Source of the DNA: a virus
Direction: 5' to 3' (one strand)
DNA length: 64,000 nucleotides
IMG/VR virus record: IMGVR_UViG_3300027976_000006
Span: 92,976 to 156,975 of that record
Position numbers and translations under genes: made by a program. This document shows positions 616 through 25,242 of this stretch, piece after piece. The stretch's first letter is position 1. Each line of letters begins with the position of its first letter. Below the pieces are notes generated by a model, which saw only the letters and a program-made list of their open reading frames with translations, ran no database searches and was not told the DNA's origin.

Positions 616-627
616 GGAGATAGTATT

Positions 628-1056: not shown

Positions 1057-1078
1057 ATTCTAGATTTTAAGGTTTGCT

Positions 1079-1477: not shown

Positions 1478-1488
1478 GAGGTTATACA

Positions 1489-1899
1489 ATGCAGGTACAG
1501 GAAGCATTTAAAATTGGTTTCTTGTCTAGATGTGTCGAAGAAGGTTTAAGCTCAGAGAACACACACAAGCTGGCTAAGATGGCTGCGACCTTATTTGAAA
1601 AGGAAGCGCTTATTAACGTTAGTCCGACGGGAGAGGCGCGTAACGCTGTTGGGATACTGAGAGATGTCGCCCCTTACCTGCTGGCTGGTTTGGCTGTCCC
1701 TCCTGCGCTCGGCGGGGCTGCGGCCTATCTGTCTAACACGGCGATGGAAACCGGTGGTGGGGCTGCCCACGGTGTTGAAAATGTTAAACGGGAAGAGTTG
1801 CAGACAACTTACGACAGGCTTACAGCTCAGCTGCAAAGACAGAAAGAATTACGAGATTACAAGTCAAAGCGTAAAAGCACTGGACGAGTTTTTCTATAG
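1489..1899 (+). CDS. Hypothetical protein, possible internal virion protein
   Basis: GGAGG upstream; KLA/KMA/EKEA motifs; hydrophobic segment LLAGLAVPPALGGAAAYL. Confidence 0.75.
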   Translation: MQVQEAFKIGFLSRCVEEGLSSENTHKLAKMAATLFEKEALINVSPTGEARNAVGILRDVAPYLLAGLAVPPALGGAAAYLSNTAMETGGGAAHGVENVKREELQTTYDRLTAQLQRQKELRDYKSKRKSTGRVFL

Positions 1900-1914
1900 G
1901 GTGAAGGAATAAAA

Positions 1915-2289
1915 ATGGCTACTAGTTTAATAAAGTTCGCAAGTCAAAAAGAAGGAAACGAGCGTGGTCGCTTGTTTTGGGACCGGGCAGACGTCGATGG
2001 TTTGCCTTTTCGAGGGCACCAAGCCCCGGCATACCGTAACGAGGAATATGAAGATAGACTTGTACGCATAGCCGATCCAAAAAATGCGACTTTCTACACA
2101 GGGGATCCTGTACAAAATCAAGCGTATTTAAAAGTTATGGATGGCGTGTCAAACTCGTGGTACCAGCTCTCCTTTATCGAGCGTTGGCGTGAAGTTAAAG
2201 ATATACATCATTACATCTACGTAGAATGGCTCGAATACTTTTTAGAAGACGGTAATCCTTGTTTAATTCCTTCTCCATCTGCTCTATAG
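1915..2289 (+). CDS. Hypothetical protein
   Basis: AAGGA upstream; N-terminal IKFAS motif. Confidence 0.75.
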   Translation: MATSLIKFASQKEGNERGRLFWDRADVDGLPFRGHQAPAYRNEEYEDRLVRIADPKNATFYTGDPVQNQAYLKVMDGVSNSWYQLSFIERWREVKDIHHYIYVEWLEYFLEDGNPCLIPSPSAL

Positions 2290-2299
2290 GGATACTCAC

Positions 2300-3100
2300 A
2301 TGAATAAGACAAATGCACAAAAATTATTAAAACGAATTCGAGCCGAAAAATCTGCTGAGTTAGGTGATTCACTTGGTGACACACTTAGGCAGCAGGTCAA
2401 TCAGCAAATGCAAAATGATGCAATTAAAACCATTCTTAAAACAGTAGCATTGTCTGCCGGAGCGGGTGCTGCATTCCGCGGAGCTATGGGATTTTCCGAC
2501 TTCTCACAAGTTAGTAAAAAAGGGCCACGAGTAGTTGAAATGCCGGTAATATACCCTAAAGAAAAAGACAAAACCTTGCCGAAACCAGAGAAAACCGCAA
2601 TAGATTCTAACGCTAGAGCAACTGCTCCGCATGGTTTGGACTATTATTTGCCTAGTTTACTTGTGGGGGCGCCGCTAGCCGCTTACGGTGGGTGGAAAGG
2701 CGTAGACTTTATTTTAAGTAACGCACGAGAGCAAGAAAGTAAAGCAAAGCTTGAAGCTTCTAAAAAGAAATACGAAGAAGCACTGCTTGGTTCGTACAAA
2801 ACAGCAACTGACGGTTATTTAGATCGTGCGTTTGTTGGATATGCTCAAAAAGTTGCGTTTGACCCAATTGGGGCTACATCTGCTGCATTCAATTCTACTT
2901 TTCCAAACGCTTCTGGGCTTGGTAAAGGTTTGGCTTTAACTTATCTGCTAGCGAGTGTTCCTGCTGGGTATTTTCTAGTAAATAAGGCTATGAAGAAAAA
3001 TAGCAGGAATAAAATACTGGAAGAGGCTGTTGCGGAAAGAGCGCGACGACAAGCGATAGCACAACCTCCTGAACTTTACGCTGTGCCGCACAGCATATAA
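2300..3100 (+). CDS. Hypothetical protein, possible internal virion/ejection protein
   Basis: EKSA, EKTA, YKTA and QKVA motifs alternate with hydrophobic Gly/Ala segments. Confidence 0.75.
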   Translation: MNKTNAQKLLKRIRAEKSAELGDSLGDTLRQQVNQQMQNDAIKTILKTVALSAGAGAAFRGAMGFSDFSQVSKKGPRVVEMPVIYPKEKDKTLPKPEKTAIDSNARATAPHGLDYYLPSLLVGAPLAAYGGWKGVDFILSNAREQESKAKLEASKKKYEEALLGSYKTATDGYLDRAFVGYAQKVAFDPIGATSAAFNSTFPNASGLGKGLALTYLLASVPAGYFLVNKAMKKNSRNKILEEAVAERARRQAIAQPPELYAVPHSI

Positions 3101-3120
3101 TTTTGGCTGGAGTTTTACAA

Positions 3121-6100
3121 ATGCTTCCGTTTTCTTCTAATTTGTTTAATCCCGACGCTATGTCCTTGTTGAGTAACGTGCCACAACCGTTGCCAGAAGC
3201 TCCCGTGGTTCCATCGTTTCCAGCGGTTCCGTCGTTTCACGAATTTCATGATACTAATAAAGTTAGATCGCTCATTTACGACAAAGTGCTGAATGCGGCG
3301 CAGCAGGTGCAGCCTATCTCCAACGATCGGCACACGCTGAGGTTATCTGATATAAATTATCGAGATGGTGACAAGTTTAGTAAGCAAGATCAAAAATCTT
3401 CCATTCTCAATGGGAGGACTCAAGGGCGTAGGCTAGAAGGAACTTGGGAGCTCTTGGATAATGCGACACAGCAAGTAATAGACTCCAAGAAGTCAGTGCT
3501 GGCGACTGTTCCGCACTTGACTGATCGTGGCACGTTTATAAATAACGGTACCGAGTATATTTTACGAAATCAACAGCGGTTATTGCCAGGAGTTTATACC
3601 CGGGCAAGGAACAATGGCGAGATTGAATCGCATGTTAATGTTATGGCAGGAAAAGGCGTTTCACACCGTTATTTTTTAGACCCAGAAAAAGGTAGATTTA
3701 AACTCAAGGTAGGCCAAGCATCGGTAGGATTAACTCCTTTGTTGAAAGCTATGGGGGTTACCTCCGAGCAAGCCAAAGAAGCGTGGGGCACGGATCTATT
3801 TGCTGCCAACTATAACTCAGATGACGCTTCCGACTATACACGGCTTAAAGGTATGTTTCTTTCGTCCAAAGAATTACAAGGGCCGGAAGATCAACAGAGA
3901 CAAGCTTTGCTTGCTAAATTTTCTAAAATGGAAATGGACCCCGAAGTAACACGGCGCACGCTGGGAAAGCCTTATGCAAATATGTCATTGGACGCTGTGC
4001 TAGACATCACGAAGAAATTAATAAGTGTTAACAAAAATGAATCAGACCCTGATGACAGGGACGCGCTTCATTTTCAGCAGTTTGTCGGGCCAGAGGATTT
4101 GTTTTCAGAGCGAATCGCACGAGATAAAGGGCAGGTACGCCGTAATTTACTATGGAAAATGTCAGGAAAAGGTAATTTAAGCTCAATGCCTTCGTCCGCA
4201 TTAGACAAGCAGTTGAAAAGTGCATTGCTTAGTAGTGGGTTAGGGCAGGCAATTGAAGAAATCAACCCGACAGACCTTTACGAAAAAACAATGTCGGTTA
4301 CCCGCGTGGGCGAGGGCGGTATTTCTTCCATGGATTCTATCCCCAAAGAATCTCGAAATGTGCAATCAAGTATGCTGGGCTATATAGACCCTGTCCGTAC
4401 TCCGGAATCTGGGCGTGTGGGTGTAGACACTTATTTGGCAAGAGGTTCTCGAAAAGGAAGCGATGGAAAGCTATACGCGCAGTTTCGAGATTTACGAACT
4501 GGTGAAATGGTGTATAAAACTCCACAAGATGTGGCAAACTTAACTGTTGGATTTCCAGGAAGTCTAGAAGGGCCAGATAAGCGGGTGCCGGCAATGCGAG
4601 ACGGCAAAATGCTTCATGTTCCTAAGGATAGTATTGATCTAGAATTACCTAATATGGAAGAGGCATTCAACCCTCTTTCTAATGTTATTCCGATGAAAAG
4701 CCAGGTAAAAGGGCAAAGATTAGTAATGGCTTCTCGTATGACTACGCAAGCTTTACCTTTAGTATCGCCCGAAGCTCCTTTAGTACAGTCGGCAGTTCCC
4801 GGTACAAACGGGAAGCAAAGCTATGAAGAGTTGTATTCGCCAGGGATGGGAGCTTTGCGGGCGACACAAGCCGGTAAAGTTATGGCGGTTACTGACGAAG
4901 GGATTAAAGTGCGTAATGCGGACGGTACCGAGGAAACGCATGAGCTTTATAATAACTTCCCTTTTAATCGAAAAACTTTCTTTCAGCAGACTTCGGTAGT
5001 TAAGCCAGGCGACACTATCCAGCCAAATCAATTGTTGGCCAGTTCTAATTACACAGACAAGGTAGGAACGATGGCTTTAGGGGTAAACGCACGTACTGCT
5101 TATATCCCGTGGCAGGGCAAGAATTTTGAAGACGCGATTGTTATTTCAGATAGTTTTGCAAAGAGAACGGCTTCGTCGCATATGTACCAGCACGAGCTGG
5201 AGATTGACGACAAAACACAATTAGGTAAAAGGCAATTTATCCAAGCATTCCCGGCGACATTTAAAAAAGAAACATTAGCGACTATAGATGATCAAGGAAT
5301 GGTTAAGCCAGGTACGGTAGTTAATTTTGGTGATCCTTTGGTTCTTGGTATTACGCAAAAAGAAAATGCATATAACAAGGTGCACAAACAAGGGCAAAAG
5401 GGATTTAATAACGCAGCCGTACTTTGGGAACATCACGATAGTGGCGTTGTCACTGATGTGGTTATGGGTAAAAAAGGTCCGGTTGTTGTTGTTAAAGCTG
5501 AATCTCCAACGCAAGTCGGCGATAAACTGTCCGGTCGCTACGGGGACAAAGGCGTCATTGCTGATATCATTCACGATAATGAAATGCCACAAGGGGCGGA
5601 CGGTCAACCTTTTGAAGTGTTGCTTAATCCTCTTGGGATAATTAGTCGAACTAATCCTGCGCAAATGTCTGAATTGTTTTTAGGAAAAATAGCGGCTAAG
5701 CGGGGAACGCCGATTAAAGTAGATGATTTTGATACTAAAAAAGACATGAGCCAATGGGTGTTGCAGGAATTAGCCAAAGAAGGTTTGTCTGACTTAGAAG
5801 ATATTGTAGACCCATCTAAAGATCAAAAAATTAACAATGTGGCAACGGGTAGTCGTTTTTTTATGAAATTGCACCACACTGCTGAATCTAAAGGGCAGGG
5901 TAGAAGTGGCGGAGCTTACACTACGGAAGATGCCCCAGCTAAAGGCGGTACGGAAGGTTCTAAGCGCATAGGTTTGATGGATGCCAACGCATTGCTTTCT
6001 CACGGGGCTACGGACACGTTACAAGACATTTTCACAATACGCAGGCAAAAAAATGACCAGTATTGGATGCAATTTATGGCTGGTTACGATCCAAAAATCA

Positions 6101-7587
6101 CTACAGTTCCTTTTGCATATCAAAAATTTGTGAATCAGCTGCGCTCGGCTGGCGTTAATGTGGTCAAGCAGGGAACGCAGACTCAGATTATGGCGATGAC
6201 GGATAAGGACATTGACAGTTTAGCTGGAGACCGTGAGTTGACTAACGCAGATGGCGTAGAGTGGGGTAACCAACTAAAAGAGATCAACGGCGGACTATTC
6301 GACAAGGCTAAGACTGGAGGGCATGGCGGGACACGCTGGTCATTCATCAAACTTCATGAACCTTTGCCCAATCCTGTGATGGAAGAACCTATTAGGTCCA
6401 TGCTTGGACTGACAAAGAAAAAGTTTGAAGGTGTAATAGCGGGTACAGAATCTTTAGACAAATACGGCAGCGGTACGGCAGCGCTGCAAAAAGCATTAGA
6501 AAATTTTAATGTAGATGCGGAAATTTCTAAAGCACGCGCAGTTATTTCCGCAGGTAGAGGCTCGCAGCGAGATGAAGCAATCCGTAAACTTAGTTATGCT
6601 AAAGCGGTGCAGAAGCTTGGGTTACAGCCTAAGGACTATATGCTGACCAAGGTACCGGTTCTTCCTCCAATGTTTCGTCCTGTTAGTCTGATGAGTAATG
6701 GTATGCCTTTGGTTAACGATGCCAACCACCTGTACAAAGAGTTGTTTGAGGCTAACCAGAATTTCAAGAGAATGCAGCAAGAAGTCGGAGAAGATGCTTC
6801 TGGGACAGAACGCCTCTCTACCTACCAAGCGTTTAAAGCGGTGACTGGGCTGGGGGATCCTATTAGTGCAAAAAGCCAAGAAAAGAATGTTCGTGGTGCA
6901 TTAAAAAATGTATTTGGAGAAAGCCCTAAGTTCGGGGTGGTGCAGCGTAAGTTGATTTCTTCCACCGTTGACAATGTAGGGCGTGCTGTTATTACCCCAA
7001 ACCCATCTTTGGATATGGACTCTGTTGGTTTACCGGAGGATAAAGCATTTAAGGTTTACGAAAAGTTCGTCACCAGAAGATTGGTGCGACAAGGTATGTC
7101 GATGCTGCAGGCTCGTACCCAACTAGAAGACAAGACGCCAGTAGCCCGTAAGTTACTGGTTGAAGAAATGGAGCATAGGCCAGTGTATATTAGTCGTGCC
7201 CCTGTGTTGCATAAATTTGGGATTATGGCAATGAAGCCAAGATTGACTAAAGGAAATACATTGCAGGTAAGCCCATTAATTGTAAAAGGGTTTGGAGCTG
7301 ACTTTGACGGGGACACTATGAATTATCATGTGCCCAGCACAGAAAAAGCTAGAAAAGAGGCTTTAGATCGTTTACTTCCCAGCCGTAACCTTTTTAGTAT
7401 AGCTGACATGAAGTCGGTAATGCACGCTCCTGCTAACGAATACATTGGCGGGTTGTTTATGGGGACAGACCCATCACGTAAATCCACGCGGCCTGTCCGG
7501 ATTTTTCAAAACATACAGGATGCGAAGCGAGCACACGAAAGTGGAACTATTTCGGTCAATGACCCTGTCCGAATTTTAAATGGTTAG
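3121..7587 (+). CDS. rpoBC: Phage DNA-directed RNA polymerase, beta subunit fused to the N-terminal (catalytic) half of beta'
   Basis: Beta motifs in order: GTFINNGTE, RTPESGRVG, MASRMTTQALPL, NFEDAIVIS, GDKLSGRYGDKG, LNPLGIISRTN, MKLHH, LRSAGVNV. Then beta' motifs: GGLFD, PVLPPMFRP, VGRAVI, RAPVLH, GADFDGD (7294-7314). ATG 3121 follows GGAG; the ORF track starts at TTG 3103. Confidence 0.95.
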   Translation: MLPFSSNLFNPDAMSLLSNVPQPLPEAPVVPSFPAVPSFHEFHDTNKVRSLIYDKVLNAAQQVQPISNDRHTLRLSDINYRDGDKFSKQDQKSSILNGRTQGRRLEGTWELLDNATQQVIDSKKSVLATVPHLTDRGTFINNGTEYILRNQQRLLPGVYTRARNNGEIESHVNVMAGKGVSHRYFLDPEKGRFKLKVGQASVGLTPLLKAMGVTSEQAKEAWGTDLFAANYNSDDASDYTRLKGMFLSSKELQGPEDQQRQALLAKFSKMEMDPEVTRRTLGKPYANMSLDAVLDITKKLISVNKNESDPDDRDALHFQQFVGPEDLFSERIARDKGQVRRNLLWKMSGKGNLSSMPSSALDKQLKSALLSSGLGQAIEEINPTDLYEKTMSVTRVGEGGISSMDSIPKESRNVQSSMLGYIDPVRTPESGRVGVDTYLARGSRKGSDGKLYAQFRDLRTGEMVYKTPQDVANLTVGFPGSLEGPDKRVPAMRDGKMLHVPKDSIDLELPNMEEAFNPLSNVIPMKSQVKGQRLVMASRMTTQALPLVSPEAPLVQSAVPGTNGKQSYEELYSPGMGALRATQAGKVMAVTDEGIKVRNADGTEETHELYNNFPFNRKTFFQQTSVVKPGDTIQPNQLLASSNYTDKVGTMALGVNARTAYIPWQGKNFEDAIVISDSFAKRTASSHMYQHELEIDDKTQLGKRQFIQAFPATFKKETLATIDDQGMVKPGTVVNFGDPLVLGITQKENAYNKVHKQGQKGFNNAAVLWEHHDSGVVTDVVMGKKGPVVVVKAESPTQVGDKLSGRYGDKGVIADIIHDNEMPQGADGQPFEVLLNPLGIISRTNPAQMSELFLGKIAAKRGTPIKVDDFDTKKDMSQWVLQELAKEGLSDLEDIVDPSKDQKINNVATGSRFFMKLHHTAESKGQGRSGGAYTTEDAPAKGGTEGSKRIGLMDANALLSHGATDTLQDIFTIRRQKNDQYWMQFMAGYDPKITTVPFAYQKFVNQLRSAGVNVVKQGTQTQIMAMTDKDIDSLAGDRELTNADGVEWGNQLKEINGGLFDKAKTGGHGGTRWSFIKLHEPLPNPVMEEPIRSMLGLTKKKFEGVIAGTESLDKYGSGTAALQKALENFNVDAEISKARAVISAGRGSQRDEAIRKLSYAKAVQKLGLQPKDYMLTKVPVLPPMFRPVSLMSNGMPLVNDANHLYKELFEANQNFKRMQQEVGEDASGTERLSTYQAFKAVTGLGDPISAKSQEKNVRGALKNVFGESPKFGVVQRKLISSTVDNVGRAVITPNPSLDMDSVGLPEDKAFKVYEKFVTRRLVRQGMSMLQARTQLEDKTPVARKLLVEEMEHRPVYISRAPVLHKFGIMAMKPRLTKGNTLQVSPLIVKGFGADFDGDTMNYHVPSTEKARKEALDRLLPSRNLFSIADMKSVMHAPANEYIGGLFMGTDPSRKSTRPVRIFQNIQDAKRAHESGTISVNDPVRILNG

Positions 7588-7667
7588 GAAACTAAGTAAT
7601 ATATCTCTATCGTAGATTTTAATTAGGGTTTAGAATCACAAGGTGAGATGACACAAGGAGTATGATT

Positions 7668-8414
7668 ATGGCAGTTAATTTTGAATTGTTACGAATGGCA
7701 CGACAAAGCATAGGAAAAAAACACTTATCTAAATATGCATTCGTTGCAGCGGGTGACCCGGCTATGGGTGCTCCCCCGATGGACCCTTCTATGGGCGGTG
7801 GCGGTGCTCCCCCGATGGACCCTTATATGGGCGGTGGTGGTGCTCCCCCGATGGACCCTTCTATGGGCGGTGGCGGTGCTCCCCCGATGGACCCTTATAT
7901 GGGCGGTGGCGGTGCTCCCCCGATGGACCCTTATATGGGTGGTGGCGGTGCTCCGCCCCCAGCCGACCCGATGGCTGCAATAATGCCGATGATTCAGCAA
8001 GCGGTACAGCAGGCAATGTCCGCCAACGGCGGAGGACAAGCACAAGCAACGCCGTCTGGGCTCAGACCTAAAATCGATATCAATGTCGAAATTGTACAAA
8101 TTAAGAAAATGCTTGCCAAAATTATTGACTCACTTGGTATTCACGTGCCTGTGTCTGATATGGTGGTAACACCTGAAGATTTAAATCAAATTGCGCAAGG
8201 TGGCCCTGGCTATGCGGCGGCAACGCCCGACCAGCCGGCGGGCGGGGGTGGGCTTGGGCAGATTCAGCCTGTTTCTCCCATGAAAGCGGCAGAGGCCTGG
8301 GAAAGTGGTGCAGCTTTCAGTTTACCTTCTGATTATTACCCAGCGCAAACAGCGCATAAAAGTAAAAGTGTAGCGGAGTTGGCTACTGCTCTTTTAATGC
8401 GAAAATCTATGTAA
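7668..8414 (+). CDS. Gly/Pro/Met-rich repeat protein
   Basis: AAGGAG 7 nt before ATG 7668 (track start 7662); five GAPPMDP(S/Y)MGGG repeats; KYA and KAA motifs. Confidence 0.8.
   Translation: MAVNFELLRMARQSIGKKHLSKYAFVAAGDPAMGAPPMDPSMGGGGAPPMDPYMGGGGAPPMDPSMGGGGAPPMDPYMGGGGAPPMDPYMGGGGAPPPADPMAAIMPMIQQAVQQAMSANGGGQAQATPSGLRPKIDINVEIVQIKKMLAKIIDSLGIHVPVSDMVVTPEDLNQIAQGGPGYAAATPDQPAGGGGLGQIQPVSPMKAAEAWESGAAFSLPSDYYPAQTAHKSKSVAELATALLMRKSM
7767..7958 (+). repeat. 36-nt coding tandem repeat, 5 copies plus a partial copy
   Basis: Unit GGTGCTCCCCCGATGGACCCTT(C/A)TATGGG(C/T)GGTGG(C/T), with no spacers. Confidence 0.95.
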
Positions 8415-8426
8415 GGAGTTTATGTT

Positions 8427-8651
8427 ATGTTCATTGTGGAGGTTCTTACTACCGTAGGGAAACCTCCACTTAGGCTTCCTGCTTCTCAAGTTGTAGTGCG
8501 TATGCCGGATGGCACTCCAATTAGCGTGGCGGCTTTGTTCGGCGGGGTTACTAGCGTTTTGGTATCGCATTGTGAAGACTCTAGCTTCAATGACAATTTA
8601 CGTAAGTTAGGCATTAACGAAACCGTTATTTCTACAAAGGTACAAGTGTAA
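8427..8651 (+). CDS. Small hypothetical protein
   Basis: AAGGAG upstream; 74 aa; predicted beta-rich. Confidence 0.75.
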   Translation: MFIVEVLTTVGKPPLRLPASQVVVRMPDGTPISVAALFGGVTSVLVSHCEDSSFNDNLRKLGINETVISTKVQV

Positions 8652-8652
8652 T

Positions 8653-9228
8653 ATGGACAATTCTTTGCGCTCTTCCGACATATATTACAGAGATAGGCAA
8701 CCAATAGTTGTGCCTAAGCCTGTGCCGATGCCGACTTATCGGCAATCTTCTAACGAAAGTTTTTCCAATAATAAATATTATGCGGAGATGTCAACACCGG
8801 CTGGCACAGACGACATAGTTAAAATGCAACTGCGACCAAAAAAAGAATCGGAATTGGAGTTAGCGGATAACTGGGACGGTATAGCAACTTTTCAGAATGA
8901 ATTTAAAGAAGGTGCCACTTCTATCGTGGTAAAATCAACTGAAGCTGTAATCCTGCAGTTACAAGTTGCTGTGGATATGGCAGTCGGGCGTAACGAGTTG
9001 ACGAGAGAGCAGGTAGACTCTATAACTTTTGTAGCAACAGCTCGTGCCCCGATTTTTGCGGTACCAAAAGTGCCTCCGATTAAAGAAACAACTGTTTCTC
9101 CCAAGAGCACACCCGAGGCAGCCGATATCCTAAACGCCCCGACTAAACCGGGCAATAAAAAGGCAAAGCGGGGCATTACCCTGAAAGACATTGCAGCTGT
9201 GTTTGATGTCGACGATAGCGACGCTTAA
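8653..9228 (+). CDS. Hypothetical protein
   Basis: Starts 1 nt after the previous stop; 191 aa. Confidence 0.7.
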   Translation: MDNSLRSSDIYYRDRQPIVVPKPVPMPTYRQSSNESFSNNKYYAEMSTPAGTDDIVKMQLRPKKESELELADNWDGIATFQNEFKEGATSIVVKSTEAVILQLQVAVDMAVGRNELTREQVDSITFVATARAPIFAVPKVPPIKETTVSPKSTPEAADILNAPTKPGNKKAKRGITLKDIAAVFDVDDSDA

Positions 9229-9269
9229 AATCCAGATTTTAAATAATTTGTTCAGGGCAAAACTATTTT

Positions 9270-12890: not shown

Positions 12891-12980
12891 TATTAATAAG
12901 GTGTTTGTATTGCGGTATAAGCCACTATATGGCTAAACTACTTTAATAACTTTAAGCTTCAGATAACTTAGGAGGACTCT

Positions 12981-13250
12981 ATGGGGAATAAACCGCTGCT
13001 TGGCGGGCTTGACATAAAGTATGCTGCCGCATATCTGCTGCCCCCATCTACCTCGGAGTTCGGTGAAGATAAAAAGAAAAAGAAAAAGAAAATACAAGCA
13101 GAGGACGAGGGTGCTGCTGTGGAGAAAATGGCAGCCACCTACGGGGATGCCATTGTTGGCGCACGCTTATCCTTGGTTAGACAGCAGATGCGTTCTGGCG
13201 ATCTAGGCGGCGGGTGGCATCCAGATAATCAAATTAATCCGATTAAGTAG
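12981..13250 (+). CDS. Small protein with a poly-Lys tract
   Basis: AGGAGG upstream; K7 tract between IKYAA and EKMAA. Confidence 0.7.
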   Translation: MGNKPLLGGLDIKYAAAYLLPPSTSEFGEDKKKKKKKIQAEDEGAAVEKMAATYGDAIVGARLSLVRQQMRSGDLGGGWHPDNQINPIK

Positions 13251-13270
13251 CACAATCAAGGAATGTCCTT

Positions 13271-15745: not shown

Positions 15746-15748
15746 ACT

Positions 15749-16432: not shown

Positions 16433-16438
16433 GAGTCA

Positions 16439-17461
16439 TTGTTGAAAAGTTACAAGGATGTGCGTCTAGCTGACCCGTTTCTTCGCCCTTACTGGAGGCA
16501 CGAGCGTGTACTTCGCATGCTTCGCAGCGTTCCACCGGAGCGTTGTAAACGATTTGATGATCGCTGGATTCAAGAATATAAAAAGTTTTTGTTTTTTTGG
16601 AATAAAGGCGAAGCCCAGCGGGAACGACTTCTCTATGAAAATCCAGGCTTGTACTTCGCCTATAATTTATACGACAGGCTGGCGATTGAACCCGAGCTGA
16701 CCTTGATGATTGAAGCCAGGCTGTTAGCTGGGTCTTCTGTCCAAAGCATTGCTAATGACTGCAAGACCATACCAGAAACCATTGAATGGTACGAACGACT
16801 ATTTTTTAATGTGTCTGATTTCTTGACTCACCACGATTGGATCGTAAAAAATGTATTGTTGCCCGCGTCTGACCGTTTTGTAGAACAACTACCTCCGGAC
16901 AGTGCTGGGTCAACGCAGCCGGCTATGTCTTCTGGGCTAATGCGCACACAATTAGATTTACCTTTGAAATTCTTTGCGTATTTTGGTGGTCCTTTAGTTT
17001 GCGATGTCATGATTAGCGGGTTTCGACGCAACAATCATGTATTAACCTCAGATAATTTGTCTGAATTTTTTAACAATCAATTTGCACTTCAAGTGCAGCG
17101 GCGCAGTGCGCAAGCCGCAGGACAGTTTGAGGTCAACAAGTATAATGTATTGGAACTTCTTAACACGCATATCAGGTTGATGGAATTGCATAAATCCGGC
17201 AAGAGTCAAGAAGTGCGACATAACGAATTTGAAAAAAATGTAAGTGCAATGATGCTGGAAATTCCTTGGAGTGTAGGTAAAAACGGAGAACAGCTATATC
17301 AAGGAACCGCTGTTGGTAGGTACGATAAAGGGCCAGTTGAGTTGAATTCAGAAGAAGCTATTTTAATCGCCGCTGGAACTAACTTACCCGTACTGGAACA
17401 TGACGAAGGTATCGATGTTTACAAACGGGGGGAGACGGATACACATGCAACCATTGAATAA
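16439..17461 (+). CDS. Hypothetical protein with a possible helix-turn-helix
   Basis: AGGAG before a TTG start; IEARLLAGSSVQSIANDCKTIPETIEWYERLFF looks HTH-like. Confidence 0.65.
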   Translation: MLKSYKDVRLADPFLRPYWRHERVLRMLRSVPPERCKRFDDRWIQEYKKFLFFWNKGEAQRERLLYENPGLYFAYNLYDRLAIEPELTLMIEARLLAGSSVQSIANDCKTIPETIEWYERLFFNVSDFLTHHDWIVKNVLLPASDRFVEQLPPDSAGSTQPAMSSGLMRTQLDLPLKFFAYFGGPLVCDVMISGFRRNNHVLTSDNLSEFFNNQFALQVQRRSAQAAGQFEVNKYNVLELLNTHIRLMELHKSGKSQEVRHNEFEKNVSAMMLEIPWSVGKNGEQLYQGTAVGRYDKGPVELNSEEAILIAAGTNLPVLEHDEGIDVYKRGETDTHATIE

Positions 17462-18824
17462 GGCAGATGAACAGCAGCTACTAGCTGGCGTAAAAAAGGC
17501 TGTGGACTTGGTTGATAACCAAAACATAGATCCTACCGATGCCATGTATCAAGTAGCAAAATCTATGCAGTTTTCTCCCGGATTTTTAAAAGCAGCTTGC
17601 AACGCTTTTAACACAGGGAGACAGCTCGCCCAGTGGAACGCTAATGATTCTGCGCTGGATAAGCTGGCTAGTTTTACTTTGGCAGATTACTCGACAGTAC
17701 ACGACAGAATCTGGGGACAAAAAGTAGAAAAAGTTGCTTCAGTATCTAATTTTTTACCTGTCTTTGATTCTTACGAAGAACAAGCAAGACAGCAGTTTCT
17801 CCGCGCGGATTTAACTACGCTGGAAAAATCGGCAGCTGAAGTGCAACAGCACCCGTTAGCGCTGGAAGAGTACGCTGGAAACAAAGTCACAAAAAACTAC
17901 TCAAACTACGACTATTGCCGGCGTATGGCCGAAGAAGCTAGGCGAGAAAAATCAGCAAACGAAGACAGATTAAACCTTAAGCTACATCTGCTGGAAAATT
18001 ATTTCCGTAAGTTTGCCCAGGATCGGGTGCCGTTGGCACAAGTAGAACATGCTGTTTCAGTTTGTCGTGGCGCGGTGGGTAAGACACTTATGGACCACGT
18101 GGCGGGGAAATTTCAAAAAGAAAAAAGAGCAGCAGATCACAAAGCTAGCTGGGTAGGTTTTCAGCAAGAAGTCGACTGGAAAAAAGAACCTTACACATTA
18201 ATCGATGCCACAATAAAACAAGCTAGAGATTACTACAAGTCTGCGCTGGCACTGCAAAATCTAGAGATTAAAGCGGCAGAAGCTAAAGAAATTACTACTT
18301 CTTTTTATCGCCCTTATGTACCCAGCTATCCGGATAGCCGGCCTCCTTCTGTTAATCTTATGGAAGAAAAACGAGGGGCGGCACTTGCAAGCGGATTAGG
18401 GGGAGGACTAGGATTAGGATTAGCAAGCAGCATCGCTGGTTTGGCACGGGATTCCCACGACAAACTAGTAGACAAACAAATAAGGGAGTTAGATGCCCCT
18501 GACCATTTAAACGAGTTGCGAAAAATCAGGGCACAGACGGTACTCACTCAACTAATGAGTGATCCTGAAAATCCTTTAAGCCAATACGATCCAGAGGAAG
18601 TACTGGGTAAATACAATGAAATGGTGCAATTATCCCCAAGACTTGCAGATCAATCTGCAAGCATTGGACCTTTGTTAAACAAACGAATGCTTGGTAATAC
18701 GGAACCTTTTGAAATTTCTGAGCTGTTGAAAATGGAAGAAAGTGCCAAGAAAACTCAGACTTCACCTTCTCGTGACGATAACCAAATAGGAAACGCGCAA
18801 AATGGCAGCATTATCGCTAAGTAG
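17445..18824 (+). CDS. Helical head-region protein, possible internal virion protein
   Basis: ATG 17445 follows GGAG (track start 17400); DKLAS, EKVAS, EKSAA, KFAQ, EKRAA motifs; Gly zipper GLGGGLGLGLAS. Confidence 0.75.
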   Translation: MQPLNKADEQQLLAGVKKAVDLVDNQNIDPTDAMYQVAKSMQFSPGFLKAACNAFNTGRQLAQWNANDSALDKLASFTLADYSTVHDRIWGQKVEKVASVSNFLPVFDSYEEQARQQFLRADLTTLEKSAAEVQQHPLALEEYAGNKVTKNYSNYDYCRRMAEEARREKSANEDRLNLKLHLLENYFRKFAQDRVPLAQVEHAVSVCRGAVGKTLMDHVAGKFQKEKRAADHKASWVGFQQEVDWKKEPYTLIDATIKQARDYYKSALALQNLEIKAAEAKEITTSFYRPYVPSYPDSRPPSVNLMEEKRGAALASGLGGGLGLGLASSIAGLARDSHDKLVDKQIRELDAPDHLNELRKIRAQTVLTQLMSDPENPLSQYDPEEVLGKYNEMVQLSPRLADQSASIGPLLNKRMLGNTEPFEISELLKMEESAKKTQTSPSRDDNQIGNAQNGSIIAK

Positions 18825-19923
18825 TATTACTTATGAGCAAGGGTTGCAGTTACTGGCGGCTCGAAAGCAGGCTTTTGACTCGGGGCGTATCCGTCGTATG
18901 TCTAAAGAGGCAATGGCTACTTCCTTTTATTTGCGCGACATCGGTACAGATTTTTTAGGGAAGGTAGCAGAATCTGGTTTGCTCGATTCTTTAAAATCCG
19001 GATTTGGAAGTTTAGGATCTATGGATGCTTCTACGCGTAATGTGCTGTTATCGGGGTTAGCCGGTGCTGGCGTTGGGGCAGGCACAAATGCGGCATCCTC
19101 CCTACTGAAAGGCGAAGAAGGGGTAGGCTGGAAAGCGTTAACTGGTGGGTTGGCCGGTGGGGCTGTTGGGGGCGGGATTGGTTTGGCGCTTAACCCGGAT
19201 ATACTAAGCAAATTTGTTGACAAAAATCAAAACGGGCCACCCGATTCTACCCCTCCAAATAGAAATTCGCAAGTAGCTGCGGCTATAAAAAGCAGATCCC
19301 CAGCAGAACAGTTAGCGGAAATAGACAAGTTACAAGGTGTGGCAGACAGCAGTATGCCAGAAATTAAAAGCTACGCGGCACATGGGGCAAACGTGGCGGC
19401 GGGTGGCGCTGCTGGTGCCTATGTGGCAACTAGAGCTACATATAATCCTGATGACATTGCACATAAGCTACGCACCGAGCTACACATGGCAGACCCTAGC
19501 AACACTCACACCTACGAGCGGTTTCATCGTGGAATGACAGCCCCAGACCTCGGCGTAATTGACGACGTAGCCCGCGCCAAACTTAGAGATGACATGCTTA
19601 AAATGACTCGCGATCAGTTTAGAGATGCATATGTGCCTAAATCTCGGTTTGGGCGTATTCCTTCTACTTTTGCGAGTAATTTACATACAGCTGCCCCTAA
19701 CATGGCTGATGCGATTCTTAAAAACAATACTGTAACTGGCGGTATGTTTACTGGTGCGGGCAAAATACGATCGGGCAAGGCAGGTATACTGGCGGCACTA
19801 GCCGGACTCGTTGCGGCAGGGGCTGGGACTATACGCCACAACTACAATCAAAATAATGCAGAACGCAGCAATGCACAAGAAACATTAAAATCGTTAGCTG
19901 GTCTTACTAAGCAACAGCAGTAA
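18802..19923 (+). CDS. Glycine-zipper protein, possible ejection protein
   Basis: GLAGAGVGAG, GGLAGGAVGGGIGL, AAGGAAGA and GILAALAGLVAAGAG segments after GKVAE. Confidence 0.7.
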   Translation: MAALSLSSITYEQGLQLLAARKQAFDSGRIRRMSKEAMATSFYLRDIGTDFLGKVAESGLLDSLKSGFGSLGSMDASTRNVLLSGLAGAGVGAGTNAASSLLKGEEGVGWKALTGGLAGGAVGGGIGLALNPDILSKFVDKNQNGPPDSTPPNRNSQVAAAIKSRSPAEQLAEIDKLQGVADSSMPEIKSYAAHGANVAAGGAAGAYVATRATYNPDDIAHKLRTELHMADPSNTHTYERFHRGMTAPDLGVIDDVARAKLRDDMLKMTRDQFRDAYVPKSRFGRIPSTFASNLHTAAPNMADAILKNNTVTGGMFTGAGKIRSGKAGILAALAGLVAAGAGTIRHNYNQNNAERSNAQETLKSLAGLTKQQQ

Positions 19924-19935
19924 AGGAGCAAAGCC

Positions 19936-21414
19936 ATGGCGTTAATTAAACTTGTTTCTCCTGCTGGTTGGGACTTTGATCAGCAAATTGTTTCTCCGAT
20001 TAAAGTGAGTAGCCGTGGATTGATTGGTAACGATCGTCAAGAGTTTTTAAAACGGGCTAGTCATTCTTTTTTGGACCAGTTAGATAATGTTAAATTTGCC
20101 TCAGACGAAGTTCCTGTGCATTTAATCGCATTAGGTGCAAGTGAAGCTTATGGCCCCAATAGAAACGGTGATGGGTTTAAAGAAGCCACTTGTCGCGAGC
20201 ATCATGACACCTTTGTTAAATTTGCCAAATTTTTTCGCAATCATAAAAACAAGGCCGAGCGAGGCGATCCTTTCTATGGTGTGGTTAAAGCTTCTGCTTA
20301 TAACGAAGATATGCGACGGGTAGAATTGCTTTGTGCTTTAAACGCAAGCAAAGCAGCCGCGGATCGGAATGGTGGTTTTATTGCAGATACCGAGTTAGAA
20401 AAGATTGCGAAAGGCGAAGACATAGGCGTAAGCATGGCGTGCCGTGTTTCCCATGACGTTTGTTCTTTTTGCAAGCACGCAGCTAAAACACGAGACGAAT
20501 ACTGTACAAGAGAAAAGTGTGCAGCGGGTGGGTGCAAGGAAAATCTCACTAAGCTAGTAAAAGTCGGTAATGATGTGCATCATTTGCATGTCGACAATCC
20601 CAACCCAGTTTGGTTTGACATCAGCCGAGTTTTTCGCCCCGCGGATCGTATTGCTTATGGCACCCGTGCAGATTACCTAACCAAAGCAGCCGCAGATTCC
20701 GGCATATTCGAACTGCAGGATTACATCAAATTAGCTTCGGCTTCTACTGCTCCTCTGGCTGTCATTTTGTACCAAGCGGGGCACCACGGTTTATGGTCGG
20801 AAAAAAATACTGCCCAAGTTAAATTAGGATATGGGCTTGCTGCTCTTGAAAAATTTGCAGAAATGCTGGATGCTAATACTTACCGAGCCGTAGTAACCTC
20901 TGCTTTTCCTATAGAAAGGCTGGCAAAATTAGGTTCGGCACACTGTGATAAGCAGTTAGCCGCGTTGGCAGATAATAAAATATTTTTAACATTGTATGAT
21001 TATGCACGATTGGCAGGACAAGAAAAGTACATGAAAGCTGCAGCCGCGATACTCCCCGAAATATATACGCTAATGGCCGAGGATGAATCCTTGCCTTTAG
21101 CAATTGAGCGCGGGGTCGGCTCAATTGGCGATAAAACAGCTAATGAAAGTGCTAGGGCGTTTGCTGCCACGTTGACGGCGAGTCATTCGTTTCACCGAGT
21201 GGCAGCGGAAGACCGAAACCTTTTGAGCTGTATACGTGGGCAGGCTGCTCCTACGATCTGGCAAAAGGCAGCTGCATATAATTTGGAAGGCGAAAGCCTA
21301 GCCAAGGAGTATGCAATGTATAAGCTAGCAGGGTTATGGCGATTGGCTGCACTAGACAACGACTTTACTTCAACAGTCAAGTTAAGTCTTAAGCAGAATA
21401 GAATATTTAACTAG
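19936..21414 (+). CDS. Putative prohead (capsid maturation) protease
   Basis: NRNGDGF, FRNH (candidate catalytic His), GVSMAC (candidate Ser), CSFC Cys cluster, FDISRVFRPAD. Lies directly before the scaffold and capsid genes. Confidence 0.75.
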   Translation: MALIKLVSPAGWDFDQQIVSPIKVSSRGLIGNDRQEFLKRASHSFLDQLDNVKFASDEVPVHLIALGASEAYGPNRNGDGFKEATCREHHDTFVKFAKFFRNHKNKAERGDPFYGVVKASAYNEDMRRVELLCALNASKAAADRNGGFIADTELEKIAKGEDIGVSMACRVSHDVCSFCKHAAKTRDEYCTREKCAAGGCKENLTKLVKVGNDVHHLHVDNPNPVWFDISRVFRPADRIAYGTRADYLTKAAADSGIFELQDYIKLASASTAPLAVILYQAGHHGLWSEKNTAQVKLGYGLAALEKFAEMLDANTYRAVVTSAFPIERLAKLGSAHCDKQLAALADNKIFLTLYDYARLAGQEKYMKAAAAILPEIYTLMAEDESLPLAIERGVGSIGDKTANESARAFAATLTASHSFHRVAAEDRNLLSCIRGQAAPTIWQKAAAYNLEGESLAKEYAMYKLAGLWRLAALDNDFTSTVKLSLKQNRIFN

Positions 21415-21454
21415 GTCATCGGAACTCGGTGCCGTTTTCAAGGAGTACATCTAA

Positions 21455-22708
21455 ATGGCGACAACAGTTAAGACTCAAATAGACTCTATTGATCGATTTC
21501 TAAAAGCCGTAGGCTATTCTGAAAAGAATGCCGAGGCGAACACAGAGGCAGGTTCAATTGGTGGAGACACCACCCATCCTATTAAAGATGTGGATGATTC
21601 CACAGAAGACGCAACAGAAGGTTTCCGTTCTACCGAAAACACAGCAGATGTTAAGGCCGACCAAGGTCCTGCTTCTGTTGAAAATGCTAAAAAGGCTGCA
21701 GCTAGAAAACGTGCTTCGGTGCGTAAACGAGCCGATGAACACGATCCTAACGGGTCGGCCTCGGATGATCAAATACAGATTGGTACTAACAAAAAACCAA
21801 CAGGGGAAGATCCTTCAGTGGAAACTTCCTCAGTAAAATCAGAAAAAGAAGATACCGACACGGCACATCCGGCTAGCACTGACAATAGTGAATTAGACGG
21901 CAACAAGTATGCCTCTATGTCAACGGCACAGCTTTACAAGATTTCAAATGATCTTGGGAATCGTGTTCTTGTTGCGCTGACAAAATTTGCCGACAAGGCC
22001 GATTTTATGGATGATGACGACTCTGACCGCAACGACTCTGAATCTGAATCTGACTCTGAAGTCACAGAAGAAAAAGATGCAGTAGACCTTGCTGGGCAAG
22101 CTGGTTGGGAACTTGCAGGTTTGTTAAGCGGTAAGTTTGACAAACGTGCTGCCGACTCGCTTGTATATTCAACTTTAAGCGAAATTATCAAGACTGCTAA
22201 CGACGATGCAGATAAAGCTGCAGTTTACTTGCAGAGCTATCACACTGAATTGCGTAAGCAAGCTGAGGGAGAGGAAGAAGCCGCTTTAGCCGCCATGGGC
22301 GGTGGTGGCGGTGACGAGGCTGCTTTAGCACAAGCTATGATGGATGGTGGCGGTATGGGCGATGGCGGTATGGGCGATGTCGGTATGGGCGATGGTGGTG
22401 GTGCTGGCGGTATGGGTGACGGCGGCGGCGACGGTGCTGACGGTGGTGGTGATGTAGAACAATTAGCCGCTATCTTAGATCAACTTGGCATTTCTCCTGA
22501 AGAGTTAGAGGCTGCTATGTCTGAGCATGGCTCCGAAGGTGCTGGTGCTGGGCAGCCAGACGCAATGGCTTCTGCCCCGCCTTCTCCTGATGAAGAACCT
22601 AAAATGGAGGTTGAAGCGGCACATAAACAAGCAGTAGCTAAAAAGGGGGCGGCGTCTAAAAATGTGCGGGATTACATTCAGGAAGTTCTGGAGCGTTCCC
22701 GCCGTTAA
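21455..22708 (+). CDS. Putative capsid scaffolding protein
   Basis: Acidic and low-complexity (GDGGM repeats); many K-x-A motifs; short C-terminal helix NVRDYIQEVLERSRR; lies between protease and capsid genes. Confidence 0.55.
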   Translation: MATTVKTQIDSIDRFLKAVGYSEKNAEANTEAGSIGGDTTHPIKDVDDSTEDATEGFRSTENTADVKADQGPASVENAKKAAARKRASVRKRADEHDPNGSASDDQIQIGTNKKPTGEDPSVETSSVKSEKEDTDTAHPASTDNSELDGNKYASMSTAQLYKISNDLGNRVLVALTKFADKADFMDDDDSDRNDSESESDSEVTEEKDAVDLAGQAGWELAGLLSGKFDKRAADSLVYSTLSEIIKTANDDADKAAVYLQSYHTELRKQAEGEEEAALAAMGGGGGDEAALAQAMMDGGGMGDGGMGDVGMGDGGGAGGMGDGGGDGADGGGDVEQLAAILDQLGISPEELEAAMSEHGSEGAGAGQPDAMASAPPSPDEEPKMEVEAAHKQAVAKKGAASKNVRDYIQEVLERSRR

Positions 22709-22750
22709 TTTTTTTTTTTGTTTGAATCTTATTTTTGGAGGATTTGCACA

Positions 22751-23191
22751 GTGAACACAAAAACCGCGGCCATGCTTGTCGAATACATTGCCTCTGCCTC
22801 GACATTAACCGAACGTTTGTTAAAACAAGCACACATACAATATGAACACAACAAGCAGGCTGCCTCCAGGCGGAGTGCTGTTCTTGCTCGACTAGAGCAG
22901 ACTGGGTGTATTGCCCCGCATCAAAAACAGGCAGCTGCTGCGATGCTGGATAATCATGCCCATAGTTTAGACTTATTAAGCAATGCCATTGATAAGGTGC
23001 AGCAACTTAAAACTGCTGTAGAAAAAACCGGCACTGACCTCGGACAAGCTGTTTCGGACAGAGAAGCAGGCATTAAGCCCGCTAACAAAGGCCGTAACAG
23101 TTTAAATGACCCATATGTGGGCCGACGTACTTCTGAAAAGAAGGCATCGGATATAGCGATTTGGGCGGTTATGGACGCCCCTGGTTATTAA
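22751..23191 (+). CDS. Helical head-region protein
   Basis: GTG 22751 follows GGAGGA (track start TTG 22718); KTAA, KQAH, KQAAS, KQAAA and KKAS motifs. Confidence 0.75.
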   Translation: MNTKTAAMLVEYIASASTLTERLLKQAHIQYEHNKQAASRRSAVLARLEQTGCIAPHQKQAAAAMLDNHAHSLDLLSNAIDKVQQLKTAVEKTGTDLGQAVSDREAGIKPANKGRNSLNDPYVGRRTSEKKASDIAIWAVMDAPGY

Positions 23192-23245
23192 TTTTAACAC
23201 TAAAGACTCGTTTGAGTCTTAAACACAAGTCTTAGGAGGACGATT

Positions 23246-23776
23246 ATGGCTGCTCCACGGCAAATGACTGCCAACACCCTTAACGCGTTAAAGGGTTGGC
23301 CCCAGATGAACGCAGTAGACTACGCAACATCAATTGATGCGTCTGTAACTACTGTTGTCCCAGCTGGTTCGGTGGTTTCGTTAAATTCATCTGGTAAATT
23401 CATTCTTGGTGTAGGCAATCTTAAAGTAATGCCTATGTTTCTTTTTGCCAATTCGGATGATCCAGATATTACCAATGACGGTGGAGATGCCTCCACTGTT
23501 AAAGGCGTATTTATTCCGATAGGCCCAACTGGACAAGCTTTGGCTCTGGTAGCAACTGGGGCATACGAGTTGGTAAGTACCACTTATGTCTCTGGTTCTT
23601 ACGCTCCAAACGCTGCCTTAACTTCTGCGACGACTGGTGCAAATGCCGGTAAACTTGCAGCAGGCACGATGTATACCAATATGATTGTTGGTATAGTTTC
23701 CCGCGGTGTTGTAGACAATGGTTACGGCAAGAATGCTTTAGCATTTTGGCCTTGCCCCGTGTTCCCTACTGCTTAA
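23246..23776 (+). CDS. Putative capsid decoration/cement protein
   Basis: AGGAGG upstream; 176 aa, small-residue and beta-rich (YAPNAALTS...GKL, VGIVSRG); immediately before the capsid gene. Confidence 0.55.
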   Translation: MAAPRQMTANTLNALKGWPQMNAVDYATSIDASVTTVVPAGSVVSLNSSGKFILGVGNLKVMPMFLFANSDDPDITNDGGDASTVKGVFIPIGPTGQALALVATGAYELVSTTYVSGSYAPNAALTSATTGANAGKLAAGTMYTNMIVGIVSRGVVDNGYGKNALAFWPCPVFPTA

Positions 23777-23838
23777 TTTTTAAATATTAACTCAATCTAA
23801 CCACAAGTTTGATTGATACCACAAGGAGGTTTTTACGC

Positions 23839-24786
23839 ATGTCTAATTCCAATACTATGACTCAAGAAGAAAGCAAACTTCTTAGTCAGACAATTTTTGA
23901 AAAGTTGGCTTCTAGGGACTCTGGTCTTGAAAAGCAAGCCGTTGACGCCGTTAACGACTTTACTAGAACTAAGATGCGCGAAGATGGATTTTATCGTAGG
24001 ATTATGCCGCCGATTCCATTAAGCAACGATGATCTTGATCGCCAAGTCGATACGGACAAACCTGTAAAGATTGTGGACAAGGAACCTGATAGTCCAGCGG
24101 CTATCTCAATTCCTTTTGCCACGCTTCCCACTAACCTGTACATTCGTGGTGACAGGTACAAAGTTACTTTTGACCGCATCGTGACCCCTAAATTCACGAA
24201 AGATGTGGACGAACTTCGTACTTGGCACATGGACATCCGCCAAATTTTGTCGGACAATGCCATTAAGGATATGCTAGCGGAAGAAGATGGAAAATTTATT
24301 TCTGCGGTCAACACCGCTCTAGTTGGTGCAGAAACAATTGTTCCTACCTCTGGCGTAATCCAGTACAAGCAGCTTGGTGGTGGCGTCACCCGTGGCAACT
24401 TGTGGGATAGCTTCAAGATTATGCCAAGCACGCCTTCTAATCTGGAAGTTCACTCTGTCCTGCTTAATAACATCACGATTAAAGAAGTTGCAAAACTTAA
24501 TCGTACTGAGATGGGCGGCGACCTTAGCGAAGAGATTATGCGTAATGGTTGGACTTACAGTGAATTCATGGGAGTTCAGTGGATCATCACAATTAAGAAG
24601 GGACTTGTCCCGACTAACACGATGTATCATTTCGCAGACCCTAAATTTATTGGCAAGAGCTATATGATAGAAGACACTACGATGTATATCCGTCGTGAAG
24701 CGTATTTTATCGAATTTTTTGCCTATGAAACTTTGGGTGGCACCATTGGGCATACCTCCGGTCTTGCTCGGGTTGACTTTACCTAA
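23839..24786 (+). CDS. Putative major capsid protein (HK97-like fold)
   Basis: ATG 23839 follows AAGGAGG (track start 23809); ~315 aa. Backbone-helix-like IKDMLAEEDGKFISAV and C-terminal FFAYETLGGTIGHTSGLARVDF. Followed by a terminator. Confidence 0.75.
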   Translation: MSNSNTMTQEESKLLSQTIFEKLASRDSGLEKQAVDAVNDFTRTKMREDGFYRRIMPPIPLSNDDLDRQVDTDKPVKIVDKEPDSPAAISIPFATLPTNLYIRGDRYKVTFDRIVTPKFTKDVDELRTWHMDIRQILSDNAIKDMLAEEDGKFISAVNTALVGAETIVPTSGVIQYKQLGGGVTRGNLWDSFKIMPSTPSNLEVHSVLLNNITIKEVAKLNRTEMGGDLSEEIMRNGWTYSEFMGVQWIITIKKGLVPTNTMYHFADPKFIGKSYMIEDTTMYIRREAYFIEFFAYETLGGTIGHTSGLARVDFT

Positions 24787-24794
24787 TCACAAGT

Positions 24795-24832
24795 CTAAGT
24801 TAGCCCTGGACTGCTGGGGCTAACTTAGTTTT
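24795..24832 (+). terminator. Intrinsic terminator after the capsid gene
   Basis: Perfect 12-bp inverted repeat CTAAGTTAGCCC / GGGCTAACTTAG followed by TTTT. Confidence 0.75.
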
Positions 24833-24858
24833 AAAATCCAGAATTGGAGTAATGAATT

Positions 24859-25242
24859 ATGTCTAAGCTTCCTAATCCTACTGACGCTTACAACTATTTG
24901 TTTAACAAGGTGCATGCTCAAGTATTTTTGAACAAATTAGCCAGTTACGGTATTACCCCTAGTACCGAACAGGAAGTTTCAGATTTATTTGAACTTGCCG
25001 GACAACTGCGACATATCGAAAGCCCCGAAAAGCAAGCTGCAGAGGGTAGCCGTTTTGGCTCCGCCGTAGCTGGACTTAACGAGGCTATAAATGCGACCCC
25101 TCAAGGTCAATGGCAGCAAGCAGTATATGAAGATTCCGCAGTAAAGCAGGCAACTTATGATTTAGCAAATGACCCTGCTATCTATGCTTCCATCCTTTCG
25201 TTGAAAGCGCACGAAGCCGCTGTTTTGGCTGGTAACAGCTAA
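24859..25242 (+). CDS. Hypothetical head-region protein
   Basis: GGAG upstream; NKLAS, EKQAA and VKQAT motifs. Confidence 0.8.
   Translation: MSKLPNPTDAYNYLFNKVHAQVFLNKLASYGITPSTEQEVSDLFELAGQLRHIESPEKQAAEGSRFGSAVAGLNEAINATPQGQWQQAVYEDSAVKQATYDLANDPAIYASILSLKAHEAAVLAGNS

Follow-up and report, generated by a model that had tools for sequence, protein, structure and literature searches.

The head genes in a 64-kb window of viral DNA, the whole stretch analysed here (64,000 nucleotides; IMG/VR record IMGVR_UViG_3300027976_000006, positions 92,976 to 156,975), encode proteins enriched in one short motif, Lys-x-Ala (K-x-A), which is conserved across a lineage of related phages. We consider it probable that this motif is a prohead-protease cleavage code of the T4 and phiKZ kind, with the specificity Φ-E-K-x-A (Φ, hydrophobic), read by a gp21/assemblin-fold family that is new in sequence and includes the product of the open reading frame (ORF) at 19936. 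The window is the terminal part of a 157-kb viral contig that is 76% complete; all of its long ORFs, and all window features given below, lie on the plus strand. From 5′ to 3′ it contains genes for small proteins, a split multisubunit RNA polymerase, a head module (12981-25242) and tail genes. The motif had been singled out in a sequence-only reading in the form K-x-A(S/A), as a mark of head cargo spanning 1489-25242, and all of the examples listed there are present in the sequence.

Composition-corrected counts place the signal in the head module. In the head set, defined as ORFs 12981-25242 (4,021 amino acids), K.A (the dot standing for any residue) is observed 72 times with 27.9 expected from within-protein shuffling (z 9.3), and K.A[SA], with Ser or Ala following, is observed 35 times with 5.4 expected (z 13). 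When shuffling is confined to blocks of 20 residues, so that local composition is kept, the expectations are 28.9 for the 72 and 5.8 for the 35 (z 9.5-13), and 0 of 500 such shuffles match the observed counts; a composition artefact was rejected on this ground. The permuted and related patterns A.K, KA, AK, R.A, K.S, E.A and Q.A are flat or depleted in the head set. Among 1,600 residue-pair patterns with gaps of 0-3, K.A ranks first there and is not among the leading pairs for the remainder of the window, and the leading triples of the head set are extensions of K.A (EK.A, K.AA, K.A.D, K.AS, IK.A and L.K.A). At the motif sites Lys and Ala are each encoded by a mixture of codons, as they are elsewhere, so the signal is at the protein level and a DNA-level motif as its cause was rejected.

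The scarcity in tail genes, first judged by eye, holds under the same correction, with 54 K.A in ORFs 25333-64000 and 60 expected (K.A[SA] 14 and 10.4). The claimed span proves too wide: 12981-25242 is enriched, whereas ORFs 1-12890 are not (K.A[SA] 4 against 4.0 expected; K.A 26 against 24.2), and 1489-12890 contributes three single conserved N-terminal sites, K30 of ORF 1489, K17 of ORF 2300 and K24 of ORF 7662. A K.A falls inside the first 45 residues of 9 of 12 head ORFs and of 4 of 34 downstream ORFs. Over the whole contig nine ORFs have a significant motif excess, five of them being the head ORFs 13271, 17400, 19936, 21455 and 22718 and four lying outside the window.

As a positive control the identical pair scan was applied to genes 67, 68, 21, 22, 23 and 24 of T4, whose prohead protease gp21 (MEROPS S77) cleaves at (L/I)-x-Glu. 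The scan ranks I.E first and L.E fifth, finds no K.A enrichment and returns nothing for T4 tail genes; the known gp21 rule is therefore recovered by this method, and by this measure the K.A signal in the window is stronger than the T4 signal. Glu-type motifs (L.E, I.E, A.E, S.E and G.E) are not enriched in the head set, where L.E is observed 28 times with 21.5 expected and I.E 9 times with 10.2 expected, beside the 72 and 27.9 of K.A, a comparison of motif and not of chemistry. Herpesvirus assemblin cuts at V/L-x-A|S, and the herpes-type motifs V.A, L.A and I.A are likewise not enriched there.

The motif is a property of the lineage. In 80 related viral contigs gathered by a protease search (protease identity 31-89%), K.A is the first-ranked pair in 73 head modules and ranks 2-7 in the others, and the downstream ORFs of these loci show no comparable K.A excess. 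The head genes of the cultured relatives Arash and D69 also have K.A as their leading pair, with 51 observed and 23.5 expected and with 55 and 25.2, respectively, and their tail genes do not. By orthogroup, the observed-to-expected ratio of K.A[SA] is 5.9 for 13271, 5.7 for 17400, 6.7 for the protease, 4.7 for 21455, 8.5 for 22718 and 7.7 for 24859. Orthogroups without a comparable excess (ratios 0.36-2.5) include ORF 16439 (0.36), RNA polymerase beta′C (0.45), the capsid protein (0.65), 23246 (1.2) and the downstream genes. At about 20 sites, 80-100% of orthologues retain both Lys and Ala while the residue between them and the flanking sequence vary. The motif is conserved in position among roughly 80 relatives; since the orthologues are related, Poisson values for conservation and depletion are too optimistic. 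The conserved sites include K11 of 13271, K88 and K143 of 17400, K39 and K250 of the protease, K24 and K230 of 21455, K46 and K70 of 22718, K26 and K58 of 24859 and K24 of 7662.

Pooling the conserved sites refines the motif. Numbered by protease subsite, with the putative cut after Ala, the consensus reads Leu, Phe or Met at P5, Glu, Val or Gln at P4, Lys at P3, a free P2 that favours Gln, Ala or Arg, Ala at P1, and Ala or Asp at P2′. P1′ is Ala in 31%, Ser in 23%, Gly in 10% and Glu in 9%, and constraint is exerted on P5-P1 and only weakly on the prime side. The core is thus a five-residue signal, (L/F/M)-(E/V/Q)-K-x-A, with a loosely constrained residue after Ala; of the form first described, the K-x-A part stands and the following Ser or Ala does not, being present in about half of the conserved sites (54%) and replaced by Ile, Val or Leu in the capsid protein. 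The constraint on P5-P1, together with the P3-x-P1 layout of the T4, phiKZ/SPN3US and herpesvirus rules, makes a cut after Ala the most parsimonious interpretation, although confidence in the exact scissile bond is lower than confidence in the code.

The major capsid protein (315 residues, 23839-24786) is identified by tblastn, which matches it to the major capsid protein of Arash (2e-31) and to the major head protein of phage G (5e-5), and by phrog_2522, a major head protein (E 0.0026); its start at the ATG at 23839 is fixed by orthologues, the listed ORF beginning with a TTG at 23809. Its site EKQA, K32-Q-A34 (23932-23940), is a predicted maturation cleavage, after which V35 would become the mature N-terminus. 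Both K32 and A34 are present in every one of 29 orthologues and retained in 98% of 57, with Ile, Val or Leu as the residue following A34; Arash and D69 carry K-E-A at identical spacing ahead of a conserved F-x-R-x-K-x-R-E. The second capsid motif of the sequence-only reading, EKLAS (K22-L-A24, 23902-23910), belongs to close relatives only and is present in 4% of orthologues, the others reading EKLSS or EQLDT. Over the 57 orthologues, the capsid body past K32-x-A34 contains 2 K.A with 51.5 expected, and the stretch ahead of it contains 63 with 7.4 expected; the nominal P of the depletion, 6e-20, is too small because the orthologues are related. This contrast before and after the site fits what avoidance of a cleavage site would predict. 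A second capsid-like ORF is found in one related locus (L047, 18014-19057, plus strand), with an N-terminal extension of about 150 residues that contains the protease's NRNGD motif and with the Lys of the conserved site changed to Arg (N-R-A-A).

The 492-residue product of ORF 19936 (19936-21414) is recognised as the prohead, or capsid-maturation, protease from its fold, position and homologues. Its AlphaFold2 (AF2) model, with a predicted local distance difference test score (pLDDT) of 88, has a beta-rich domain (1-235), a disordered linker (238-258, pLDDT < 50) and an all-helical C-terminal domain (260-492). The sole confident Foldseek matches are three chains of T4 gp21 (5jbl; probability 1.0, TM-score by target 0.66), and the Foldseek-independent search VIA aligns 152 of 165 residues of 5jbl_A (Z 11.4, root-mean-square deviation 3.8). 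Weak VIA matches, at scores that a common arrangement could also produce, to the proteases of varicella-zoster virus (Z 6.3, 106 residues aligned), human cytomegalovirus (4.7) and the Kaposi's sarcoma herpesvirus KSHV (2.7) follow. The model therefore identifies ORF 19936 as a capsid-maturation protease of the T4 gp21/herpes assemblin beta-barrel fold, in keeping with the function first assigned to it. Its homologue in phage G, gp19, is named head maturation protease (10.1101/2024.12.16.628780).

By sequence the family stands apart. No consistent Pfam match at E<=1 was found across 63 members, with neither Peptidase_S77 nor Peptidase_S78 hit, no PHROG match was found, and searches of the PDB with the single sequence and with a profile gave no match; the family itself comprises 2,276 clusters at 50% identity. 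All of the 63 homologues keep H103, S166, D174, D228 and S230. S25 was considered as the catalytic serine and rejected, being conserved in only 42 of 63; it lies in the hexapeptide VSSRGL (residues 24-29, 20005-20022), which is also found in gp21 (139-144). Five cysteines directly past S166 (C169, C176, C179, C190 and C195; 20440-20523) are invariant or nearly so and look like a zinc-ribbon insertion with no noted counterpart in T4 gp21. The motif K250-A-A252 (20683-20691), in the disordered interdomain linker, is a candidate self-release site, with K.A present in 98% of 62 orthologues and a flank identity of 0.24; the herpesvirus pUL26 precursor has a release site at the equivalent position (PMC4498786). 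A further site near the N-terminus, K39-R-A41 (20050-20058), retains Lys in 63 of 63 and Ala in 62 of 63 homologues. Some relatives carry an insertion of about 380 residues adjoining the invariant S166-M-A-C169 (for example L007, 2066-4687, plus strand, among many homologues of about 870 residues), which contains a LAGLIDADG_3 domain (E 9e-7) and is probably an intein in the active-site region.

Under the cleavage-code reading, a Ser/His protease inside the assembled prohead would cut after Ala, recognising Lys at P3 and Ala at P1, and would free itself at K250-A-A252. It would make numerous cuts in the scaffold-like proteins and small core proteins encoded by ORFs 21455, 22751 and 24859, and in parts of those encoded by 13271 and 17445, and so break them up. 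The capsid protein, cut after A34, and the products of the single-site ORFs 1489, 2300, 7662 and 13271 would each lose a short N-terminal propeptide, 10-35 residues long. Proteins that need to stay whole would avoid the motif.

The putative substrates are as follows in order of the head module. The 89-residue product of 12981-13250 carries K13 (13017-13025) and K49 (13125-13133), both kept in 4 of 4 alignable relatives. The 824-residue protein of 13271-15745 has sites at K11 (13301-13309) and K148 (13712-13720), both in segments with pLDDT < 50; K11 is conserved at 0.98 and A13 at 0.97 with x at 0.03 and flanks at 0.27, and K148 is invariant. Its AF2 model (pLDDT 69) has no PDB match and a single uncharacterised viral match. 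The 459-residue protein of 17445-18824, whose start is M16 of ORF 17400 according to the Atlas record, carries K88 (17661-17669), K143 (17826-17834) and K242 (18123-18131) in ORF-17400 numbering, kept at 0.98, 0.90 and 0.81; ESM Atlas look-ups gave no usable match for ORFs 13271 and 17400. The product of 21455-22708 is acidic and rich in Gly and Ala, with 14 K.A and 6 K.A[SA] (0.88 expected), and its sites K24 (21524-21532), K230 (22142-22150) and K391 (22625-22633) are conserved at 0.92, 0.81 and 0.66; its composition and position make it a putative scaffold protein. The small helical head protein of 22751-23191 keeps K46 (22853-22861) and K70 (22925-22933; ORF-22718 numbering) at 0.85 and 0.95, and the small head protein of 24859-25242 keeps K26 (24934-24942) and K58 (25030-25038) at 0.84 and 0.96. 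Searches of PHROGs and Pfam with the head ORFs matched nearly nothing.

Several points weigh against this reading. The observations are the enrichment, its conservation, the protease fold and the location of the sites; cleavage itself, ORF 19936 as the cutter and the bond after Ala are inferred. Several conserved K.A lie in helices and within the folded protease domain (residues 95, 139 and 156), where cutting is unlikely, and not all conserved K.A need be sites. The most distant relative, phage G, has only a weak K.A excess (24 against 13.7 expected). When the protease profile is compared with T4 gp21 by hhalign, only VSSRGL is aligned, an identity at a different place in the chain that is probably due to chance, and H103 and S166 are a putative catalytic pair, suggested by their invariance.

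The conserved copies in helices and in the folded protease domain would be at home in a docking or capsid-targeting motif, which would be bound by the scaffold, by the portal or by the capsid's inner surface so as to recruit its bearers into the prohead and would itself stay uncut. That it sits close to the N-terminus in many head proteins unrelated to one another, as T4 capsid-targeting sequences do, also suits such a role. We nevertheless hold docking alone to be unlikely: a scaffold-like protein can have as many as 14 copies, disordered linkers, the one between the protease domains among them, contain sites, and a binding tag does not need the strong avoidance seen in the mature capsid body. 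The P3-x-P1 layout moreover matches the known cleavage rules of the fold, and the scan that finds K.A here recovers the T4 rule. The T4 capsid-targeting sequence ends in a cleavage site, so targeting and cleavage can coexist. A cleavage code agrees with this layout, with sites that lie near N-termini and in disordered linkers, and with a mature capsid protein that avoids the motif.

The placement of the cut within the motif raises a different alternative, in which the protease recognises K-x-A and cuts after Lys in a trypsin-like manner, with Ala as P2′. The HK97 prohead protease has been reported to cut at Lys|Ser, Lys is the most invariant residue of the motif, and sequence by itself does not tell which bond is cut. 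Such a cut would however require P2′ to be invariant and P1′ to be free, an unusual combination in serine proteases; the constraint runs upstream, to the hydrophobic P5 and Glu at P4, and fades past Ala; and the solved relatives of the fold read P3-x-P1, which together make a cut after Lys quite improbable. It is very improbable that the motif merely reflects composition or helical periodicity, or that it is the target of another enzyme such as a lysine modifier, even though the head core proteins are helical, rich in Lys, Ala and Glu and show a small K..A excess (40 against 28), given that the excess survives block shuffling, that the permuted patterns stay flat or depleted, that Lys and Ala are fixed in columns where neighbours vary, that codon use at the sites is mixed and that PHROGs and Pfam searches of the head module turned up no enzyme that modifies lysine.

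Comparison with known systems supports the cleavage-code reading and marks its peculiarities. As in T4, the protease gene precedes the scaffold and capsid genes in the head module, gp21 is the best structural match of ORF 19936, and one short P3-x-P1 motif is common to scaffold, core, protease and capsid proteins, with N-terminal pieces ending in a site. In this lineage the motif is enriched in the scaffold, core and protease and in the capsid N-terminus and shows no excess in tail proteins, as a cleavage code would. Unlike gp21, the ORF 19936 family is without a sequence-family match, its motif is K-x-A and not (L/I)-x-E, and the protein has the invariant five-Cys insertion past S166 and a helical C-terminal domain of 230 residues. 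The phiKZ and SPN3US prohead proteases (gp175 and gp245) cut after A-x-E or S/A/G-x-E and process multi-site propeptides, in jumbo-type phages that resemble the present one in having a multisubunit RNA polymerase by the head genes and many head proteins with one motif (PMC10052503). They differ in their x-Glu sites, and the sequence kin of the window are Arash, D69 and phage G, not phiKZ.

Herpesvirus assemblin (S21), the second-best and weak fold match, shares with ORF 19936 a predicted P1 Ala followed often by Ser or Ala, and also an architecture of N-terminal protease, linker with a candidate self-cleavage site and helical C-terminal part, as in pUL26 (PMC4498786). It differs in having Val, Leu or Ile at P3 where this lineage has Lys; the Ser-His-His triad is not established for ORF 19936, and no nested scaffold gene is seen. 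A bolder proposal, rather unlikely as a whole, is that the lineage, abundant and almost uncultured, keeps a herpesvirus-like capsid maturation, with an assemblin-fold protease, a self-cleaved linker, a helical assembly domain and a cut after a small Ala in place of Glu. In that case Ala specificity and the fusion of protease with scaffold would be ancient traits of the HK97/herpes lineage and not herpesvirus inventions, and Φ-E-K-x-A would also be a portable load-then-release tag.

To our knowledge, the gp21/assemblin-fold prohead proteases of the phages studied so far all cut after Glu. A Lys-x-Ala rule, if true, would be a new specificity for a phage protease of this fold, and no report of such a rule was found in the literature searched, the coverage of which is incomplete and is not proof of absence. 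The rule would make the mature termini of capsid, scaffold and internal proteins predictable from sequence across hundreds of uncultured phages of about 200 kb, would identify proteins that pass through the prohead interior and would connect, at the level of sequence, with the Ala|Ser rule of herpesviruses. It is directly testable in the two cultured relatives, Arash and D69.

The ORFs upstream of the head module show how far the motif extends. The 136-residue protein of 1489-1899 has an N-terminal K30-M-A32 (1576-1584), with K-x-A near residue 30 in 6 of 6 alignable relatives. The 266-residue protein of 2300-3100 has K17-S-A19 (2348-2356), kept in 6 of 6 alignable relatives at 17-19, or at 19-21/35-37 when the ORF call begins earlier. 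The 250-residue protein of 7662-8414, encoded between the RNA polymerase genes, has K24-Y-A26 (7731-7739), kept at 0.92 in 26 orthologues with x at 0.00 and flanks at 0.23. These three look like single propeptide sites. Two examples from the sequence-only reading fall away: IKFAS of ORF 1915 (1933-1941) has an unconserved Ala, relatives reading KFT, KFS or KFA and most of them KFT or KFS, and TKFAA of RNA polymerase beta′C (11190-11198) is not conserved, is absent at the same place in loci L003 and L005, and is probably a chance occurrence in a motif-depleted orthogroup (K.A[SA] ratio 0.45, K.A ratio 0.73).

No conserved K-x-A site was found in the RNA polymerase genes, which Pfam identifies as beta fused to beta′N (3103-7587) and beta′C (9270-12890), and the subunits are somewhat depleted in the motif. 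Mass spectrometry has found RNA polymerase subunits to be abundant in Arash virions, and the coverage figures for these virions (capsid 86.6%) speak neither for nor against N-terminal trimming (PMC10585845). The polymerase is thus likely packaged cargo that has no conserved motif, and the claim that the motif marks head cargo therefore holds only in part. The 176-residue product of 23246-23776, just 5′ of the capsid gene, is motif-free (orthogroup K.A ratio 0.74); its position is that of phage G gp26, annotated as 'capsid decoration', and by this analogy it is possibly an external decoration protein.

Sequence searches with the capsid protein and ORF 19936 found no close cultured relatives, the sole cultured matches being Salmonella phage Arash and Vibrio phages D69, D181 and D148, with Bacillus phage G more distant; the source is an uncultured lineage of phages of about 200 kb with few cultured members. 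Elsewhere on the same contig, outside the window, the ORF at 18956-20134 (G000:C1, minus strand) has 15 K.A with 4.1 expected and that at 83010-84140 (plus strand) has 7 with 1.9 expected, at residues 5, 13 and 38 among others; both are candidate extra protease substrates encoded far from the head module. In the tail region, the ORF at 47843 encodes a baseplate wedge protein (phrog_6, E 2e-22). The ORF at 63309-63998, cut by the window end, contains a collagen-like G-P-Q repeat with 107 overlapping QGP/PQG/GPQ triplets, which accounts for the excess of PQ.P and QGP in the non-head set.

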